Of a stretch of DNA of 64,000 nucleotides, positions 39,145 to 52,284 are shown in pieces. Both the position numbers and the translations under genes were made by a program. Positions within the stretch are counted from its first letter, which is position 1; each line of letters opens with the position of its first letter. Origin of the DNA: Candidatus Poriferihabitaceae bacterium (GTDB taxonomy: Bacteria; Pseudomonadota; Gammaproteobacteria; Arenicellales; Poriferihabitantaceae); the NCBI GenBank assembly GCA_965203265.1, contig CBDBBV010000002.1, positions 1,810,773 through 1,874,772 of the forward strand, in the 5' to 3' direction. The notes under the pieces were generated by a model. That model did not search any database and was not told the origin of the DNA. It worked only from the letters and a program-made list of their open reading frames with translations.

Positions 39145-39200
39145 GCTCGGCGGGTTGCATAATGCCAGAAACATTCTGGACTTTTGGCTGTCGGAAAAAG

Positions 39201-39235
39201 GGAAGCCGACATGCTGATTCAGCGTGTCGGCTTCC
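39201..39235 (+). other. perfect 11-bp stem hairpin in the IS 5' leader
   Basis: ggaagccgaca (39201-39211) pairs with tgtcggcttcc (39225-39235) around a 13-nt loop. It sits between the left IR and the transposase RBS. Confidence 0.7.
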
Positions 39236-39285
39236 GCGTGCGCGGGATGTATCATGTTGCTTCTTTGGGAATGAAGGAGGCACAC

Positions 39286-40243
39286 ATGAGCCAGTCGACC
39301 GAAGTCAAACTCCGCGCCCTCGAAGTATGGCGCGAACACGACATTCACGCAACTATGACGGCCTTTCAGGTCAGTCGCAGCACGCTGTATGCGTGGCGCA
39401 AGGCGTATCAGCAGGGCGGCGTGGCGGCGCTCACCAATCGCACTACCAAGCCGCTTCGCGTGCGGCGGCGCAATTATCCGCGCGCCCTGATTGAGCAAAT
39501 GCGAAAGTTGCGCCGCGAGTTTCCCAATATCGCCGGAGAAGCCCTGCGCGTGCATCTGGCTAAGTGGTGCGCGGAAAACAGGATGAAATGCCCAAGCGCT
39601 CGCACCCTCGGACGCATCATCGCCGACCAGCCGGATCGACTGCGCATCGCTCCGGCGAATATCACCCGCTACGGCCGGCTCAAAGCATTCACACGCCAGA
39701 TAAAACAACGACTTAGCCGCGCCATCCGGCGCACCACCATCCCCGGCCGTTGCGTTGCCTTCGACACCATTGTGCGGCACATAGATGGCGTGCGGCGATA
39801 CCTGATCGTTGCCATCGACCACGCCACCCGCTTGTCTGTGGCCATCTGCCCCGAAAGCGCATCGAGTAAAAACGCCGCCCGATTCGCCGAATTGGTCGAA
39901 GCGATGTTTCCGTTTCCCATTGAGAACGTCCTGACCGACAACGGCTCGGAGTTCGCCGGGGCGTTCGACCAGTTTGCGAAAGAAAGGGGCTGGACGCACG
40001 CATACACCTATCCGAGATCGCCTAAAATGAACGCCATCGTGGAACGCTTCAACCGCACCATTCAGGAGGATTTCGTGGATTACGAGGAAGACCTGCTACT
40101 CACCGACCGCGTTGCTTTCAACCAGCGCCTGTTGGATTACCTAGAAAAATACAACACCCGCCGCCCCCACGCCTCACTGCAATTCCGCTCCCCCGTGCAG
40201 TTCCTCGCGGAAAACCATCCGGAGTCCAGAATGTATTGGCATC
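39286..40243 (+). CDS. IS481-family DDE transposase (reading frame has no stop inside the element)
   Basis: ATG at 39286 is preceded by AAGGAGG (39274-39280). It has an N-terminal HTH ([15 protein letters not shown]) and rve core residues D (AFDTIV), D (LTDNGSEF) and E ([10 protein letters not shown]). The frame continues open through 41715. Confidence 0.8.
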
Positions 40244-40341
40244 GTACACGGGTTTGTGATTTGACGGAAATTCGATTATCGTATAGGCAGTTGCAAAACT
40301 TGATTCACGTTCCCGACACCTCTAGAAAATCCCGAGAAAAC

Positions 40342-41715
40342 ATGAGCAAAAAAGACATGCCCGCCGCGCCTGCGGCGAATAGCGACACCTTCACCCTGAC
40401 CGACAACGCCACCGGCCAATTCTGGTCGCTACCGGCGCGCACCGGCATCATGGGCAATCGCCTGATCGACATCACCCGGCTGTACGGCGACACCGGCATT
40501 CTCACCTACGATCCCGGCTTCACTTCCACGGCCTCGTGCAAGTCCGACATCACCTACATAGACGGCGAAAAGGGCGTGTTGTTGCATCGCGGCTATCCCA
40601 TCGATCAGCTGGCTAATCACAGCGATTTCATGGAGACCTGCTACCTGCTGCTGTACGGCGAATTGCCCACTCCGGAGCAGAAAGCCTCCTTCGACGCCGA
40701 CATCAAGAATCACTCGCTACTGCACGACCAGTTCATCTCCTTCTACAAGGGCTTCATGCGCAACGCCCACCCCATGGCCATCATGGTGGGCGTAGTGGGG
40801 GCGCTGTCGGCGTTCTACCACGACAGCATCGACATCACCGATCCCGAACAACGCCAGCTGGCGGCGCACCGACTCATCGCGAAGATGCCGACCATCGGCG
40901 CCTACGCCTTCAAGTATTCACTCGGCATGACCTTCCCCATGCCGCGCAACGAGCTGAGCTACGCGAAGAATCTGTTGCAGATGATGTTCTCCAACCCGGC
41001 CGAGGACTACGAGATCGATCCGGTGCTGTCTCGCGCCATCGACCGCATTCTCATCCTGCACGCCGACCACGAACAGAATGCCTCCACTTCCACCGTGCGT
41101 CTGGCGGGCTCATCCGGCGCCAATCCCTACGCCTGCATCGCCTCCGGCATCGCCTCGCTGTGGGGCCCGGCGCACGGCGGTGCCAACGAGGCGGTGCTGA
41201 AAATGCTGGAGGAAATCGGCACGGTCGAGCGAGTCGGCCAGTACATCGACAAGGCCAAGGACAAGAGCGACCCATTCCGTCTCATGGGATTCGGCCATCG
41301 GGTATACAAGAACTACGATCCGCGCGCCACGGTCATGCGCGAAACCTGCCACGAGGTGCTCGGCGTGCTAGGGGTCGAGGATCCGAAACTGAAGTTGGCT
41401 CTGGCTCTGGAGAAGATCGCCCTCGAAGACGAATACTTCATCGAGAAGAAACTCTATCCCAATGTGGACTTCTACTCCGGCATCATCCTCAAGGCGATGG
41501 GCTTCCCGACCTCGATGTTCACCGTCATGTTCGCCATCGGCCGCACCGTCGGCTGGGTGTCGCACTGGAAGGAAATGCTGAAGGACGACGAGCAGAAAAT
41601 CGGCCGCCCGCGGCAGTTGTATCTGGGGCAGAAACAGCGCAATTACCGGCCCATGGAACGGCGCGGACACACCGACAAGAAAACCAGTTGGTCGTGGTTG
41701 TGGGGCGGCAAATAG
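40342..41715 (+). CDS. gltA: citrate synthase (type II)
   Basis: Starts at [25 protein letters not shown]. It has [14 protein letters not shown], the catalytic region [14 protein letters not shown] and HWKEM. Confidence 0.9.
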
Positions 41716-41777: not shown

Positions 41778-42146
41778 ATGCTGATCAAAATCCTGTTCAC
41801 CATGGCGGTCATCATAGTCGTGATCGTCTTCTTTCGCCGCAAACGCGGCGACGCGCCGATCTCCGGCGTTCCTGCGGCGGGCGAGGACGGCGCGGAAGAC
41901 CGTTCCATCTCCCCGCGCGCGCTGGCCTATAGCCTGCTCGGTGCCCTCGCCGGCATTTCGTTGCTGATCTTCGAACTCAACCGGCGCGCGCAAAATCGCA
42001 TCGTCGACATCCGCGTGATCTCCGACGGCACCACCACCCGCTACCAAGCGCAACGCAAATCCATCAAGGGGCGGAGATTCGTCACGCTGGACGGCGCGCA
42101 GGTGATTCTGGGGGAAAGCGATCGCATGGAGCTGCTCGATCCATGA
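41778..42146 (+). CDS. small membrane protein, hypothetical
   Basis: 122 aa with an N-terminal TM helix (ILFTMAVIIVVIVFF) and a second hydrophobic segment. Its stop overlaps the next gene's start. Confidence 0.5.
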   Translation: MLIKILFTMAVIIVVIVFFRRKRGDAPISGVPAAGEDGAEDRSISPRALAYSLLGALAGISLLIFELNRRAQNRIVDIRVISDGTTTRYQAQRKSIKGRRFVTLDGAQVILGESDRMELLDP

Positions 42147-42745
42147 CAACCCGCGCGCCTACCGCCACCCTCGCCCTGATCGGCGTCTCCACGCTGGTGT
42201 ATCTGGCCATGACCTTGCTCGATCGCGGCGCCGTGGTTCGCCCCCTGCTCATCTCCGAATATACCCACCCGACCTTGCCGGAAATACTCGACGAGCACCA
42301 AGTGTGGCGTCTGCTGACGCCGGTTTTTCTGCACTTCGGCCTATTTCACTTCGTCTTCAACATGCTGTGGACTTGGGAACTGGGGCGGCTCATCGAGGCG
42401 CGCCATGGCGCTCTCAACCTGCTCGGCCTGAGCGCGCTCATCGGCGTCGTTGCCAATCTGGGGCAATACCACGCCACCGGCCCGCTGTTCGGCGGCATGT
42501 CCGGCGTGGTGTACGGCTATTTCGGCTACCTGTGGGTAATGGGGCAGTTTCACCCCACCTTCGGCGTGCGGCTGGCTCCGCAGGTGGTGTGGCTGCTGCT
42601 CGGCTGGTTCGCGCTGGGGTGGGTCGGCGCGCTCGAATGGTTCGATATTCACATCGCCAACACCGCCCACGCCGGCGGCCTGCTGTGCGGCATCGCGCTG
42701 GCCTTCATCGTGTGCGGACTGTATCGGGGGAAACATGGCGTTTGA
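42143..42745 (+). CDS. rhomboid-family intramembrane serine protease
   Basis: 200 aa with HFVFNMLW (H/N), the GMSGVVYGYFGY catalytic Ser and NTAHAGG (His). Confidence 0.8.
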   Translation: MTTRAPTATLALIGVSTLVYLAMTLLDRGAVVRPLLISEYTHPTLPEILDEHQVWRLLTPVFLHFGLFHFVFNMLWTWELGRLIEARHGALNLLGLSALIGVVANLGQYHATGPLFGGMSGVVYGYFGYLWVMGQFHPTFGVRLAPQVVWLLLGWFALGWVGALEWFDIHIANTAHAGGLLCGIALAFIVCGLYRGKHGV

Positions 42746-45700
42746 ACCGGTGGAAAGCCGCTACCACGGGCCCCGGCTGGAACTGGAAATTCTGAAATTC
42801 TGGGAGTCCCGCAACATCTTCGCCAAGTCGCTGGCGCACAGCGAGGGGCGGCCGCGATTCAGCTTCAACGAGGGCCCGCCCACGGCCAACGGCAAGCCCG
42901 GCATCCACCACGTGCTGGCGCGCGCCTTCAAGGACATCTATCCGCGCTACAAGACCATGCGCGGCTATCACGCCCCGCGCAAAGGCGGCTGGGATACCCA
43001 CGGCTTGCCGGTGGAGCACGAGATCGAAAAGCGTCTGGGGATTTTCGACAAGAAGGAAATCGAGCGGCAAATCGGCGTCGCCGAATTCAATCGCCGCTGC
43101 CGCGAATCGGTCATGGCCTATATCGGCGAATGGGAGGAGATGACCCGGCGCATGGGCTACTGGGTCAACCTCGACGACGCCTATTACACCCTCGACAACG
43201 ACTACATCGAATCCACCTGGCACCTGCTCAAGGAAATCTGGGACAAGGGATTGATCTACAAGGGCTACAAGGTGGTTCCCTACGATCCCCGCATCGGCGC
43301 CACCCTGTCGTCCCACGAGGTGGCGCTGGGGTACAAGGAAGTGGAAGATCCGTCCATCACCGTGCGCTTCCGCCTGTGCGACGAGGAAAATACCTCCCTG
43401 CTGGTATGGACGACCACGCCGTGGACCCTGCCCGCCAATCTGCTGCTGGCGGTGGGCGCGGACATCGACTATGCCCGCGTCTCTTGCGGCGACGAGGTAC
43501 TGATTCTCGCCGCCGCCCGAGTGGAATCTGTGTTGGCGCAAACCCCCCACAAAATCATCGACACCGTTCAGGGCAGCGAGCTGGTCGGGCTGCGCTATCA
43601 ACGGCTGTTCGACTATCTGCAGGTCGAGCGCGGCGACCCGTTTCGCGTGGTCGCCGCCGACTTCGTCAGCACCGAAGACGGCACCGGAATCGTGCACACC
43701 GCGCCGGCCTACGGGGTGGACGATCTCGCCCTTGGCCTGCGCGAGGGCCTGCCGGTCATCCACGGAGTCGGGCTGGACGGCTGCTTCAAGGACGAGGTCG
43801 CGCCGCTCGCCGGCGTCTTCTTCAAGCAGGCGGATCCCATCATCAACGACATGCTGAGAGAGCGCGGGCTACTGTACCGAGATGAGAAAACCCTACACAA
43901 CTACCCATTCGGCTGGCGCACCGGCGATCCGCTCATCTACTACGCCAAGGAAGCCTGGTACATCCGCACCACCGCGATCGCCGAACAAATGGTCGAGCTC
44001 AACCGCACCATCAACTGGGTGCCGCGCAGCATCCGCGACGGGCGCTTCGGCAAGTGGCTGGAAAACAACATCGACTGGGCGTTGTCGCGCGAAAGATTCT
44101 GGGGCACGCCGTTGCCGCTGTGGCACAACCACGAGGGCGACTTCATCTGCATCGGCTCGCGCCGCCAGCTGGAGGAACTCACCGGGCAATCCCTCGAGGG
44201 GGTTGACCTGCACCGCCCGCGCATCGACGAAATCACCTTCGTCCTGAACGGCAAGACCTACACGCGGGTGCCGGAGGTGATCGATTGCTGGTTCGACTCC
44301 GGAGCGATGACATATGCCCAATGGCATTATCCCTTCGAGAACCGCGCGGAATTCGAGCAGCATTTCCCCGCCGACTACATCTGCGAAGCGATCGACCAAA
44401 CTCGCGGCTGGTTCTACACACTGCACGCCATCGCCGCGCTGGTGTCGGACAGCGTCGCCTACAAGAATTGCGTCTGCTTGAGCCACATCGTCGATCAGGA
44501 TGGGCGGAAGATGTCCAAGTCGCGCGGCAACATCGTCGATCCCTACGATGTATTCGACACCATCGGCGCCGATTCCCTGCGCTGGCTGTTCCTCGCGCGC
44601 ACCGCGCCGGAAGGACAAAAGCGCATCTCGGTGGAGATCGTGCGCGAAGTGGCGGCGTCCTTCGTCAACACCTTGTGGAACACCTACGCCTTCTTCATCC
44701 TCTACGCCCGTCTCGATCAGGTCGATCTCGCCCGCAAAGTGGACGAGGCGCAGCGCCCGGAAATCGACCGCTGGATTCTCGCGCTGGCGCACCAAACCGT
44801 GAAAACCGTCACCGAGGCGCTGGACGAATACGACGCCCGGCGCGCCGGCGAGGCCATCGAAAAACTGGTGGATCAGCTGAGCAACTGGTATGTGCGCCGC
44901 AACCGCCGACGATTCTGGAAAAACGACCACGGCGACGACAAGCAGTCGGCTTACCTGACCCTGTTCGAGTGCCTCGACCTGTGCCATCGCCTGATGGCGC
45001 CGTTCATGCCGTTTCTGAGCGAGGCGATCTACCGCAACCTGTATCGCGATGTGGCCGGCGCGGCGGAAAGCGTTCACTTGACCGAGTGGCCCGAACACGA
45101 TCCCCAACGCCTGCAACCGCATCTGGTGTTTGAAATGGATGTGGTGCAACAGGTAGTCGGGCTGGGGCGATCGGCGCGGGAGGCGAGCCGCATACGGGTG
45201 CGCCAACCGCTGGCGCGCATGTTGATCAGCGTCGCCGCCGACGACGAAGACGCGCGGGCGGCCATCCGCAAACACGAACGGCAGATCGTCGAGGAACTCA
45301 ACATCAAGTCGGTGGAATTCATCGACCGAGACGGAGGCGGAGACGGAGACGCCGGCCTGATCGACTATGTGGTCACGCCCAATTTCCCCGTGCTCGGCAA
45401 GCGCTGCGGCAAGCGAATGCCGGCCATCAAAGCCGCGCTAGCGCTGGCGGACGGCGCCCGCATCGCCGAGCGGGTGAACGCCGGGCGGAATTTCAAGTTG
45501 GAAATCGACGGCGTGGAAATGGCGTTCGCGCCCGACGAAGTGCGCGTGCAAACCACCTCCGCCGAAGGCTACGCCTGCGCCCGCGCCGAACGCCTGTTGG
45601 TGGCGCTGGACACCACCTTGAACGAGGCGCTGGTGGTGGAGGGTCTCGCCCGGGAAATCGTGAGAACCGTGCAGGACGCGCGAAAATCCGCCGGACTGGA

Positions 45701-45893
45701 AATTGCCGACCGCATCACCCTCGCCGTCTGCGGCAGCGAAAATGTACAAATCGCCCTGCGGCGACACCGCGAATACATCATGGGGGAGACTTTGGCGATC
45801 GAACTGTCGGAAGATGGCGATTCGGACGGGCATCAAGCGGAACGCGCGCTGGAGGAGGATCGCTGGCGCATTGTGTTACGCAAGACTTCTTGA
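42735..45893 (+). CDS. ileS: isoleucine--tRNA ligase, long (about 1050 aa) type-2-like form with non-canonical GIHH signature
   Basis: 1052 aa. It has GPPTANGKPGIHHVLARAFKD, the CP1 editing region and KMSKSRGN. It is not in the ribF-ileS-lspA context. Confidence 0.9.
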   Translation: MAFEPVESRYHGPRLELEILKFWESRNIFAKSLAHSEGRPRFSFNEGPPTANGKPGIHHVLARAFKDIYPRYKTMRGYHAPRKGGWDTHGLPVEHEIEKRLGIFDKKEIERQIGVAEFNRRCRESVMAYIGEWEEMTRRMGYWVNLDDAYYTLDNDYIESTWHLLKEIWDKGLIYKGYKVVPYDPRIGATLSSHEVALGYKEVEDPSITVRFRLCDEENTSLLVWTTTPWTLPANLLLAVGADIDYARVSCGDEVLILAAARVESVLAQTPHKIIDTVQGSELVGLRYQRLFDYLQVERGDPFRVVAADFVSTEDGTGIVHTAPAYGVDDLALGLREGLPVIHGVGLDGCFKDEVAPLAGVFFKQADPIINDMLRERGLLYRDEKTLHNYPFGWRTGDPLIYYAKEAWYIRTTAIAEQMVELNRTINWVPRSIRDGRFGKWLENNIDWALSRERFWGTPLPLWHNHEGDFICIGSRRQLEELTGQSLEGVDLHRPRIDEITFVLNGKTYTRVPEVIDCWFDSGAMTYAQWHYPFENRAEFEQHFPADYICEAIDQTRGWFYTLHAIAALVSDSVAYKNCVCLSHIVDQDGRKMSKSRGNIVDPYDVFDTIGADSLRWLFLARTAPEGQKRISVEIVREVAASFVNTLWNTYAFFILYARLDQVDLARKVDEAQRPEIDRWILALAHQTVKTVTEALDEYDARRAGEAIEKLVDQLSNWYVRRNRRRFWKNDHGDDKQSAYLTLFECLDLCHRLMAPFMPFLSEAIYRNLYRDVAGAAESVHLTEWPEHDPQRLQPHLVFEMDVVQQVVGLGRSAREASRIRVRQPLARMLISVAADDEDARAAIRKHERQIVEELNIKSVEFIDRDGGGDGDAGLIDYVVTPNFPVLGKRCGKRMPAIKAALALADGARIAERVNAGRNFKLEIDGVEMAFAPDEVRVQTTSAEGYACARAERLLVALDTTLNEALVVEGLAREIVRTVQDARKSAGLEIADRITLAVCGSENVQIALRRHREYIMGETLAIELSEDGDSDGHQAERALEEDRWRIVLRKTS

Positions 45894-45999
45894 TCAAACC
45901 CGACATCTCGACCAGATGGAACAAAAGCCCGTTGCGCCGGAAACCTGTTACTATTCTTTGCTCGTCAATCGCTCGAACCAACCTGTATCGGGAGGAATC

Positions 46000-46473
46000 A
46001 TGAAGAACGCATTGTTACTGTTCGCAGTTACGGTTTTCATCGGAGTTGGGCATGCGACTTACGCATCGGATGCAATACTGTCCGAAAATTTGCTGGGCAA
46101 ATGGTCGTGTTCTGCCGGTACAACAAGCGATGGCATGGAAATCAAGATGGAATTCGACCAACACTACATTGGAAATGGAACATTCGATGCACGCGGCGAT
46201 TTGACTTTCACTGCGTTGGAGGAAGGAATCGTCCTTGAATACATCGTAGCAGGTAGCGGTGAATGGGAAATTTCCGATAACTTTCTGATTGAAACGGTAA
46301 CGGATGTGGAAATAACCAGTGTGGATCCCCTTTTCGATGAACTTTTCGACCTTGAAGAAATGTTTCCGACCGGAATCAGCGATGCCTCCAAAATCATCAC
46401 GCTTTCCGAAGAGTCATTGGTGACTGTTGCCGAATCCGATGGAACCGAAATCTCTTGTTCTCGAAACCGCTAG
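46000..46473 (+). CDS. secreted hypothetical protein
   Basis: ATG at 46000 follows GGAGG (45991-45995). The signal peptide is MKNALLLFAVTVFIGVGHATYA. The gene is visibly AT-richer than its flanks. Confidence 0.6.
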   Translation: MKNALLLFAVTVFIGVGHATYASDAILSENLLGKWSCSAGTTSDGMEIKMEFDQHYIGNGTFDARGDLTFTALEEGIVLEYIVAGSGEWEISDNFLIETVTDVEITSVDPLFDELFDLEEMFPTGISDASKIITLSEESLVTVAESDGTEISCSRNR

Positions 46474-46565
46474 CAATACTCGCAGCGGCGTTCGATCCGA
46501 CTCCGACACAAACAGTTTGCCGGTTGCGGTTGACCTTGCGCCAAACTAACGATCACTAACGATCA

Positions 46566-47573
46566 ATGAACATACTGATCACCGGCGGAGCGGGCTTCAT
46601 CGGCGCCGCGCTCGCGCATCGCCTGTTGGATGACGGCCACCGAGTCCAAGCTGTCGACGACCTCAACGACTACTACGATGTCGCCCTCAAACAAGCGCGC
46701 CTGCAACGCCTGTCGGCGCGAGACAACTTTACCTTCCACAAACTGAATATCGCCGACCGCGCCGCCGTCGAGTCGGTATTCCGTAGCGGGCGGTTCGATG
46801 GGGTGGTGAATCTCGCGGCGCAGGCCGGGGTGCGCCATTCGCTGGAAAATCCGGCGGCGTACATCGACGCCAATCTGGTCGGCTTCGGCAACATCCTCGA
46901 AGGCTGCCGCCACAATGGCAGTGAAAACGGCGGCGGCGTAAAGCATCTGGTATACGCCTCGAGCAGCTCCGTGTACGGCGCGAATCGCCGGCTGCCGTTT
47001 GCCGAGCGCGATCCGGTGGATCATCCCCTGTCCCTGTACGCGGCCACCAAGAAAGCCAATGAATTGATGGCGCATACCTACGCCCACCTGTACCGACTGC
47101 CGTGCACCGGTTTGCGATTTTTCACCGTGTACGGCCCCTGGGGGCGGCCCGACATGGCGTTTTTCCGATTCACCGAGCGCATGTTGGCGGGGCGTCCCAT
47201 TCCGGTCTACAACCACGGCGATTCCATCCGCGATTTCACCTACATAGACGATGTGGTCGAGGGCGTCACGCGGGTGCTGGCACGCCCGCCGCAAACCGAC
47301 TCCGACCCCGACACCGCCAGCGCCGCCCCCTGCCGGATATACAACCTCGGCAATGGCCGGCAAATCCGCTTGATGGACGCCATTCACGCGCTGGAAAAGG
47401 TGCTAGGGGTAACGGCGCGCTGCGAAATGCTGCCCATGCAGGCGGGGGATGTGGCCGCCACCGAGGCGGATGTGGGGGAGATTTCGCGGGATTTCGGCTT
47501 TCGACCGGCCACCGATCTCGCGGTCGGCTTGGCGGCCTTCGCCCGATGGTATCGCCACTACTACGACTGCTAG
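46566..47573 (+). CDS. NAD-dependent nucleotide-sugar epimerase (UDP-glucuronate 4-epimerase-like)
   Basis: 335 aa with [16 protein letters not shown] (Rossmann fold) and YAATKKANE (YxxxK). Confidence 0.8.

Positions 47574-48897: not shown

Positions 48898-48901
<4 letters not shown>
47591..48901 (+). CDS. UDP-sugar 6-dehydrogenase family protein (nucleotide sugar dehydrogenase)
   Basis: Start taken at MTKMKEQLL within track ORF 47102..48901. It has [14 protein letters not shown], the catalytic GGHCLPID region and the C-terminal UDP-binding domain. Confidence 0.8.
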
Positions 48902-51804
<2,903 letters not shown>

Positions 51805-51840
51805 GGCGGCTAGCGCGAGCCGAGCGGCGGCGCGGGAAAC

Positions 51841-52284
51841 TCAGGAAACATGGTGGGTACGCGGGACAATGCCCTGCTCGCGATAGAAGCGAAAGCGGCG
51901 GCGGCCGGCCGACTTGTCCGCCGCCTCATCGACGATCAATTCCGCCACCCGACCGAATCGGGCATAGTCCGCCGGCGCCTCCTGCCTGAGAGAGATGAGC
52001 AAATCCACACACCCATCCGGAGCGTCTTCATGCCCGATCTGCACCGGATAGCGCTCGAGGTCGGATGCCGGCTGCGCCACGTGGTGGATGGCATGAGGCA
52101 CGAAACTGCTCTGGGAAAAAGTCCACAACATGGCGTCCAGCAAACTGCTCTGCGCCGCCTCGTCGGTTTGCATGTACACCTTCAGGCCGTGTTCGTGCGC
52201 CTTGTTGGCGATGCGGCAGGCGTAGTTGTATTTATCCGACGCCTGCGCCCGCGCGAGCACATAGAAATCCACCTGCGTGGTCAT
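51841..52284 (-). CDS. holC: DNA polymerase III subunit chi
   Basis: 147 aa. MTTQVDFYVL...ACRIANKA is typical of chi. It lies in the conserved pepA-holC-valS string. Confidence 0.85.
   Translation of the reverse strand: MTTQVDFYVLARAQASDKYNYACRIANKAHEHGLKVYMQTDEAAQSSLLDAMLWTFSQSSFVPHAIHHVAQPASDLERYPVQIGHEDAPDGCVDLLISLRQEAPADYARFGRVAELIVDEAADKSAGRRRFRFYREQGIVPRTHHVS

Follow-up and report, generated by a model that had tools for sequence, protein, structure and literature searches.

The 64,000-nucleotide stretch of DNA analysed in this study (hereafter, the window) carries a gene for isoleucyl-tRNA synthetase (IleRS), ileS, which very probably encodes the single housekeeping IleRS of the organism: a type-2 enzyme (IleRS2) whose GIHH signature was inherited within its clade, whose gene appears to be of foreign origin and to have replaced the native ileS1, and which is predicted to be hyper-resistant to mupirocin. 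The enzyme itself is unexceptional, belonging to a variant class that is published and very common. The modest addition made here concerns the ribF-lspA scar and the mixed IleRS1/IleRS2 state of one gammaproteobacterial order.

The open reading frame (ORF) listing shows ileS as a single frame of 1052 aa on the forward strand, with the N-terminus MAFEPVESRYHG. In the translation, the internal stretch NEGPPTANGKPGIHHVLARAFKD holds the signature region, and the N-terminal part that contains the signature reads FNEGPPTANGKPGIHHVLARAFKD. The gene and the features of its product are as follows, where PmIleRS2 denotes the Priestia megaterium enzyme:

42735..45893, + strand: ileS, type-2 isoleucyl-tRNA synthetase (IleRS2), 1052 aa (TIGR00392; solved-structure matches)
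42900..42911, + strand: codons of G56-I57-H58-H59 (DNA ggc atc cac cac), the swapped GXHH form of the class I HxGH signature
43410..43433, + strand: threonine-rich motif TTTPWTLP of the CP1 editing domain, residues 226-233, intact and aligned with its PmIleRS2 counterpart
44484..44486, + strand: His584, at the PmIleRS2 His582 position (alignment: LSHIVD versus HGFTVD in IleRS1)
44508..44522, + strand: canonical KMSKS loop (KMSKSRGN), residues 592-596 (ORF translation; alignment)
45282..45884, + strand: type-2 C-terminal region (Pfam DUF5915, PF19302; 157 bits), residues 850-1050

The window enzyme belongs to IleRS2, combining a HUP-2 catalytic domain with a type-2 C-terminus. On TIGR00392, the ileS equivalog model, it scored 935.9 bits against a cut-off of 621.4. 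Its top matches among solved structures were the four PmIleRS2 entries 8c8w, 8c8v, 8c8u and 8c9d (E-values from 1.7e-267 to 1.1e-263), followed by Thermus thermophilus IleRS; residues 13-1020 were aligned to PmIleRS2 by HMMER, and the two enzymes are approximately 50% identical. The preliminary description had described the gene as the long, Thermus/actinobacterial-like form and placed its product among the type-2 enzymes, a claim that is upheld by a score of 893 bits to PmIleRS2 versus 357 bits to the type-1 enzyme of the same species (PmIleRS1; 342 bits to Staphylococcus aureus IleRS1), by the DUF5915 C-terminus, and by nesting within IleRS2 in a maximum-likelihood tree of 83 IleRS. In that tree, the branch between the window enzyme and four IleRS1 from the same order measures 1.88+1.88 substitutions per site and has 100% support. 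The zinc-binding Cys cluster is absent from the C-terminus, where the last 250 aa hold three scattered Cys residues; the IleRS1 of relatives have a tail rich in C..C, of the zinc-domain type. A second CP1 editing-domain motif, GTGIVHTAPAYG, lies at residue 316. The position equivalent to PmIleRS2 His582, occupied here by His584, is a Phe in IleRS1, where it stacks on mupirocin (PMC10485003).

At the site of the canonical HxGH signature the enzyme reads GIHH, a documented exception among IleRS2 that leaves class membership unaffected. In the HMMER alignments, PGIHH falls column-for-column and gap-free on PHVGH of wild-type PmIleRS2 (8c8u, 8c8v) and, likewise gap-free, on PGVHH of 8c8w, the engineered mutant. 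The motif region is also free of gaps in a MAFFT alignment with four same-order IleRS1, four HxGH IleRS2, MupA and the pTML1 IleRS, where the first His is matched by G56 and the Gly by H58. An alternative register was considered and rejected, as a canonical HxGH occurs nowhere else in the alignments to the solved structures and to the IleRS1 and IleRS2 sets. The G56-I57-H58-H59 reading at nt 42900-42911 and the canonical KMSKS, both claimed from the first inspection of the sequence, were reproduced exactly: the DNA and a residue count from M1 return the same coordinates and residues for the signature, KMSKS occupies residues 592-596, and the alignments against IleRS1 and IleRS2 sustain the register. 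G56 and H58 place the enzyme in the G/AXHH subclass, defined by Gly or Ala at position 1 and His at position 3.

The signature is shared by all close relatives that could be read. GIHH together with KMSKS was found in 120/120 best homologues from a large protein collection, at 66-100% identity. The ileS loci fetched from same-order relatives (n=29) included 25 encoding IleRS2, every one of them with GIHH, and the named gammaproteobacterial loci from metagenome-assembled genomes (MAGs; 62-71% identity) carried GIHH in 15/15 with a readable N-terminus. The latter records are labeled Woeseiaceae, Acidiferrobacteraceae, Arenicellales, Chromatiales or Gammaproteobacteria. Among named homologues, one at 75% identity comes from Candidatus Spongiihabitans, order Arenicellales, and the window organism is most likely a gammaproteobacterium of Arenicellales type, either marine or sponge-associated. 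One Arenicellales MAG record has an IleRS identical to that of the relative G027. The next nearest IleRS, at 44-51% identity, derive from Chloroflexota, Ignavibacteriota, Bacteroidota, Rhodothermota, Actinomycetota, Acidobacteriota and Poribacteria, and their signatures comprise 34 GIHH, 24 GVHH and a few GLHH, GFHH, GAHH and GSHH. Canonical signatures in this set number only four, namely three HVGH (two from Clostridia, one from Ardenticatenales) and one HPGH. GIHH is therefore an ordinary trait, inherited with the gene and the norm for the lineage. Since it is present in all close relatives and G/AXHH in over half of the published IleRS2, the motif is uninformative about this organism in particular.

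The biochemical meaning of the swap has been established elsewhere. According to Brkic et al. 2023 (PMC10485003), G/AXHH, with X being Ile, Val, Leu, Met or Tyr, replaces HXGH in many IleRS2 and in no IleRS1; among the 163 IleRS2 sampled, 86 carried G/AXHH and 77 HXGH. A 2026 preprint from the same group mapped [A/G]XHH on a large IleRS tree as a feature of the HUP-2 (IleRS2) lineage. For the natural ALHH enzyme of Deinococcus radiodurans, the mupirocin Ki is 6.6 mM, and reversion to HVGH lowers it 823-fold, while exchange of HVGH for GVHH raises Ki approximately 200-fold in the T. thermophilus enzyme, to 35 uM, and approximately 430-fold in the P. megaterium enzyme, to 460 uM (PMC10485003). 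The motif helix of IleRS2 is displaced by ~1.7 Å from the adenine, allowing the swap to be tolerated; the third-position His substitutes for the catalytic imidazole of the first His, and a clash with mupirocin was modelled (PMC10485003). The association of GxHH IleRS2 with very high mupirocin resistance, which the preliminary description had stated as established, is accordingly correct, being restricted to IleRS2 and extending to Ki values in the mM range. Its placement of the window enzyme in the hyper-resistant class likewise agrees with the sequence, a G/AXHH motif in an IleRS2, the resistance itself being a prediction.

Applied to the window enzyme, the PmIleRS2 structures suggest that H58 would supply the catalytic imidazole normally given by the first His, a role open to it because IleRS2 has its motif helix displaced from the adenine. 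Mupirocin would be obstructed by that residue at both its nonanoic-acid and its ring parts, and the predicted consequence of this putative clash is a very high Ki, from tens of uM up to mM. The presence of GIHH in the sole, intact ileS and in 120/120 homologues implies that the enzyme should be catalytically competent despite the swap. Mupirocin hyper-resistance is predicted here from the motif, and the size of the effect depends on the enzyme background: given reported values of 35 uM, 460 uM and 6.6 mM, the Ki of the window enzyme could lie anywhere within a span of three orders of magnitude. This background dependence, together with the observation that no simple set of neighbouring residues accounts for the motif shift (PMC10485003), lends some weight to a different reading, in which the enzyme is GXHH by sequence yet not hyper-resistant, the swap being a neutral ancestral state and Ki remaining in an ordinary IleRS2-like range of ~0.2-10 uM. 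We consider this unlikely: the motif alone moved Ki 200- to 800-fold, and in both directions, in the three enzymes tested (PMC10485003), and the clash arises from the His side chain, which here aligns gap-free in a protein ~50% identical to PmIleRS2.

Hyper-resistance remains the preferred prediction. The genome (2.30 Mb, 2 contigs, 98.17% complete) contains one TIGR00392 match above cut-off. A whole-genome search for a second ileS returned only weaker matches to ValRS (980 aa), LeuRS (840 aa) and MetRS (685 aa), and none of 40 relatives has two ileS matches at E <= 1e-100. The question of whether this is the only ileS, left unanswered when the window was first described, can therefore be answered in the affirmative for a genome of this completeness. 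The neighbouring genes are as follows:

41778..42146, + strand: 122-aa ORF (orf122) upstream of the rhomboid gene (tblastn, 43-62% identity beside the rhomboid gene in same-family relatives)
42143..42745, + strand: rhomboid-family membrane protease gene, upstream of ileS (PF01694, 94.7 bits)
46566..47573, + strand: NAD-dependent sugar epimerase gene, the downstream neighbour of ileS, kept in the genus (PF01370, 195.8 bits)
48898-51804: ValRS, 980 aa, also within the window (profile match below the ileS cut-off)

The stop of the rhomboid gene overlaps the ileS start by 11 nt, and a rhomboid gene lies upstream of ileS in most same-family relatives. The 122-aa ORF had no match in a Pfam search. 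In the same-genus loci L027, L030, L031 and L036, ileS and the start of the epimerase gene downstream are separated by anything from a few nt to a few tens, and the order orf122-rhomboid-ileS-epimerase is preserved across the family. The genes around ileS are housekeeping genes, and the GC content of ileS (0.62-0.65) matches that of its neighbours. An IS481-like element is located 2.5 kb upstream of ileS, with gltA, orf122 and the rhomboid gene in between.

These observations bear on another reading, which we regard as highly improbable: an antibiotic producer might keep this IleRS for self-resistance or as an auxiliary copy, or the gene might be mobile and newly gained, in the manner of mupA, mupB or the pTML1 IleRS gene. 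High scores on the MupA and MupB NCBIfam models (808.8 and 770.3 bits) and the nearby IS481-like element point toward it, but the cut-offs of both models, at 1900 bits, lie far above these scores, and the enzyme is 38-39% identical to MupA and the pTML1 IleRS, which read HTGH and HHGH. The gene is also the sole ileS of its genome, has the GC content of its neighbours and syntenic flanks across the family, and is separated from the insertion element by three genes. Producer self-resistance was rejected in light of the housekeeping neighbours, the single ileS and a genome without a modular PKS, in which only three KS matches were found, in frames of 405-476 aa; recent mobile acquisition was rejected on the basis of native GC, family-wide synteny and distance from the plasmid-borne IleRS2. 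That GIHH is an artefact of a wrong register, a sequencing error or a decaying gene is hardly conceivable, given gap-free alignments, the same motif in 120 independent homologues, an intact 1052-aa frame with full-length similarity, and KMSKS and editing motifs in place.

As the preliminary description had claimed, ileS is not in the ribF-ileS-lspA context; it follows the rhomboid gene, and ribF and lspA are located ~350 kb away on the same contig. There, the sequence ATGA (positions 1477-1480 of locus L038) combines the lspA start ATG with the overlapping ribF stop TGA, and this locus of the organism's own genome holds neither an ileS remnant nor room for one between ribF and lspA. In five relatives of the same order (G029, G033, G034, G035 and G039), ileS lies between ribF and lspA, and in G031 it adjoins ribF at a contig end. 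The ileS of G033, G034, G035 and G039 read as IleRS1, with HIGH or HTGH, while for G029 and G031 we infer IleRS1 from frame length and context. Among IleRS2 carriers with both genes on one contig, ribF and lspA are adjacent, for example in G001, G002, G013, G025 and G027, and further in G030, G032, G036 and G040. The pattern fits a putative course of events in which ileS2 was gained elsewhere in the genome and ileS1 was then cleanly lost.

The phylogeny points in the same direction. In the 83-IleRS tree, the gammaproteobacterial IleRS2 form a clade of 27 rows, all with GIHH, with 100% SH-aLRT support and a stem of 0.48. This clade sits within a 57-row group (98%) alongside clades of Chloroflexota and Acidobacteriota; the forks linking the gammaproteobacterial to the Chloroflexota clades are drawn open. 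Because the forks inside the 57-row group lack resolution, the donor lineage is uncertain. The IleRS2 of Oceanococcus groups with Rhodothermota (98%) in the same tree. Across the class, a sample of 300 gammaproteobacterial genomes (approximately one or two per family) yielded an IleRS2-like best match, at >=40% identity, in 13, the window organism included; 2 of these 13 fall in the clade of the window enzyme (66% and 62% identity). IleRS1 accounts for all other sampled genomes that gave a match, with identities of 30-36% among the matches listed. The IleRS2 arrangement is thus a minority state for the class, though not a new one, in agreement with a published account in which IleRS1 is the usual form in proteobacteria and ileS2 has been disseminated horizontally (PMC4861432). 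Together, the tree and the ribF-lspA scar support the horizontal origin that had been raised for this gene.

For the course of events, we infer the direction and timing of the transfer as follows. An ancestor of marine gammaproteobacteria (Arenicellales, Woeseiaceae and Acidiferrobacteraceae-like lineages) would have acquired ileS2 from outside the class, the nearest sister clades being those of Chloroflexota and Acidobacteriota, almost all of which already carry GXHH. Integration of ileS2 at a site away from the original one would have been followed by clean deletion of the native ileS1 from ribF-ileS1-lspA. The transfer into the lineage appears to be old, as indicated by native GC, synteny across the family and the overlap between the rhomboid gene and ileS.

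The number of replacements was addressed with an RpoB tree, a single marker gene sampled from one genome per family, from which the outgroup row G065 was dropped on account of a wrong frame and a very long branch. The backbone of the order lacks resolution in this tree. Constraining the IleRS2 carriers of the order to a single clade cost 47 log-likelihood units (p-AU 0.042), and the same constraint without two long rows cost 35 (p-AU 0.048), so that the AU test rejects a single IleRS2-carrier clade inside the order at a borderline level. When G277, a member of another order with a 66%-identical IleRS2 of the same clade, was added, one clade was strongly rejected (p-AU 8e-119). As judged from this single marker gene, ileS2 therefore probably passed between gammaproteobacterial lineages at least once more. 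It is conceivable, but on balance doubtful, that GIHH-type ileS2 replaced ileS1 repeatedly in marine gammaproteobacterial lineages, each time leaving ribF joined to lspA. If so, this would point to recurrent selection for the type-2 enzyme, with mupirocin- or thiomarinol-like compounds present in sponge and sediment communities as one conceivable agent. The alternative would be one ancient accident.

Earlier publications already cover the GXHH signature, how it works structurally and how widely it occurs among IleRS2. The value of the present analysis for annotation lies in identifying a sole IleRS2, with predicted intrinsic insensitivity to mupirocin-type IleRS inhibitors. It also offers a tidy case of an essential gene swapped for a foreign version, in which the overlapping ribF and lspA mark the former ileS1 site.

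Close known systems include the D. radiodurans ALHH enzyme and the Streptomyces griseus IleRS2 (PMC10485003), which, like the window enzyme, are housekeeping type-2 enzymes with positions 1 and 3 swapped and a canonical KMSKS. The window enzyme differs from both in belonging to a gammaproteobacterial clade, and from the D. radiodurans enzyme also in having Gly rather than Ala at the first position. PmIleRS2 resembles the window enzyme in domain order, up to and including the type-2 C-terminus, and in the His at the His582 position, and the mutant 8c8w has the swapped motif as well; however, the natural signature of PmIleRS2 is HVGH and the enzyme is an inducible second copy alongside IleRS1, whereas the window enzyme is naturally GIHH and the only copy. 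MupA and MupB, which are plasmid-borne in staphylococci and confer high-level resistance, and the IleRS of the thiomarinol plasmid pTML1 are also of the IleRS2 type with low mupirocin affinity, a property predicted here for the window enzyme, but they are extra, mobile copies, whereas the window ileS is chromosomal and sole. Compared with E. coli-type IleRS1, encoded in the ribF-ileS-lspA operon, the cellular function is shared and the identity is only ~27-30%; the E. coli-type enzyme has a HIGH motif, a zinc-binding C-terminal domain and Phe at the His584 position, and its gene is missing from this genome.

Within the genome that carries the window, ribF and lspA adjoin one another at a junction lying outside the window:

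G000:C2:1505223-1506583 (positions 959-2364 of the fetched locus L038), ribF/lspA junction

The stop codon of ribF overlaps the start codon of lspA in the tetranucleotide ATGA. The gene ileS1, which encodes the usual gammaproteobacterial IleRS1 and normally lies between them, has disappeared from this genome, leaving no remnant at the junction. The order ribF-ileS1-lspA is still present in relatives from the same order that retain IleRS1.

The surroundings of the window's ileS, which encodes a type-2 enzyme (IleRS2), contain the following features:

39184-41715, + strand, single open frame with transposase and citrate synthase domain matches
45894-46565, AT-rich spacer of 672 nt from ileS to the NAD-dependent sugar epimerase gene
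about 46000-46473, + strand, ORF of 157 aa inside this spacer
48898-52284, - strand, ValRS (968 aa) and holC (DNA polymerase III chi)

Upstream, a domain search of the window assigned residues 38-337 of the open frame to the HTH and rve integrase domains of an IS481-like transposase and residues 445-810 to a citrate synthase domain that is complete, so that no stop separates the transposase frame from gltA. Downstream, the spacer has a GC content of 0.49, compared with approximately 0.63 in its surroundings, and its ORF matched no known family in the same search. Because the corresponding gap is far shorter in four genomes of the same genus (loci L027, L030, L031, and L036), ranging from a few nucleotides up to a few tens, the spacer looks like a small insertion restricted to this genome. 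In one relative, the gene call P0004 (1400 aa) joins IleRS2 and the downstream NAD-epimerase as a single product, the probable cause being either read-through at the junction of the adjoining genes or loss of the stop codon there. The ValRS and holC pair, encoded on the opposite strand, follows ileS at a distance of 3 kb downstream, bringing two large class I synthetase genes within 10 kb.

The gammaproteobacterial genomes G277 and G091 (loci L140 and L143) are sisters in the single-marker RpoB tree (support 100/99). Their IleRS2 enzymes, sharing 66% and 47% identity, respectively, with that of the window, belong to different clades, which suggests that gammaproteobacterial lineages acquired ileS2 independently.
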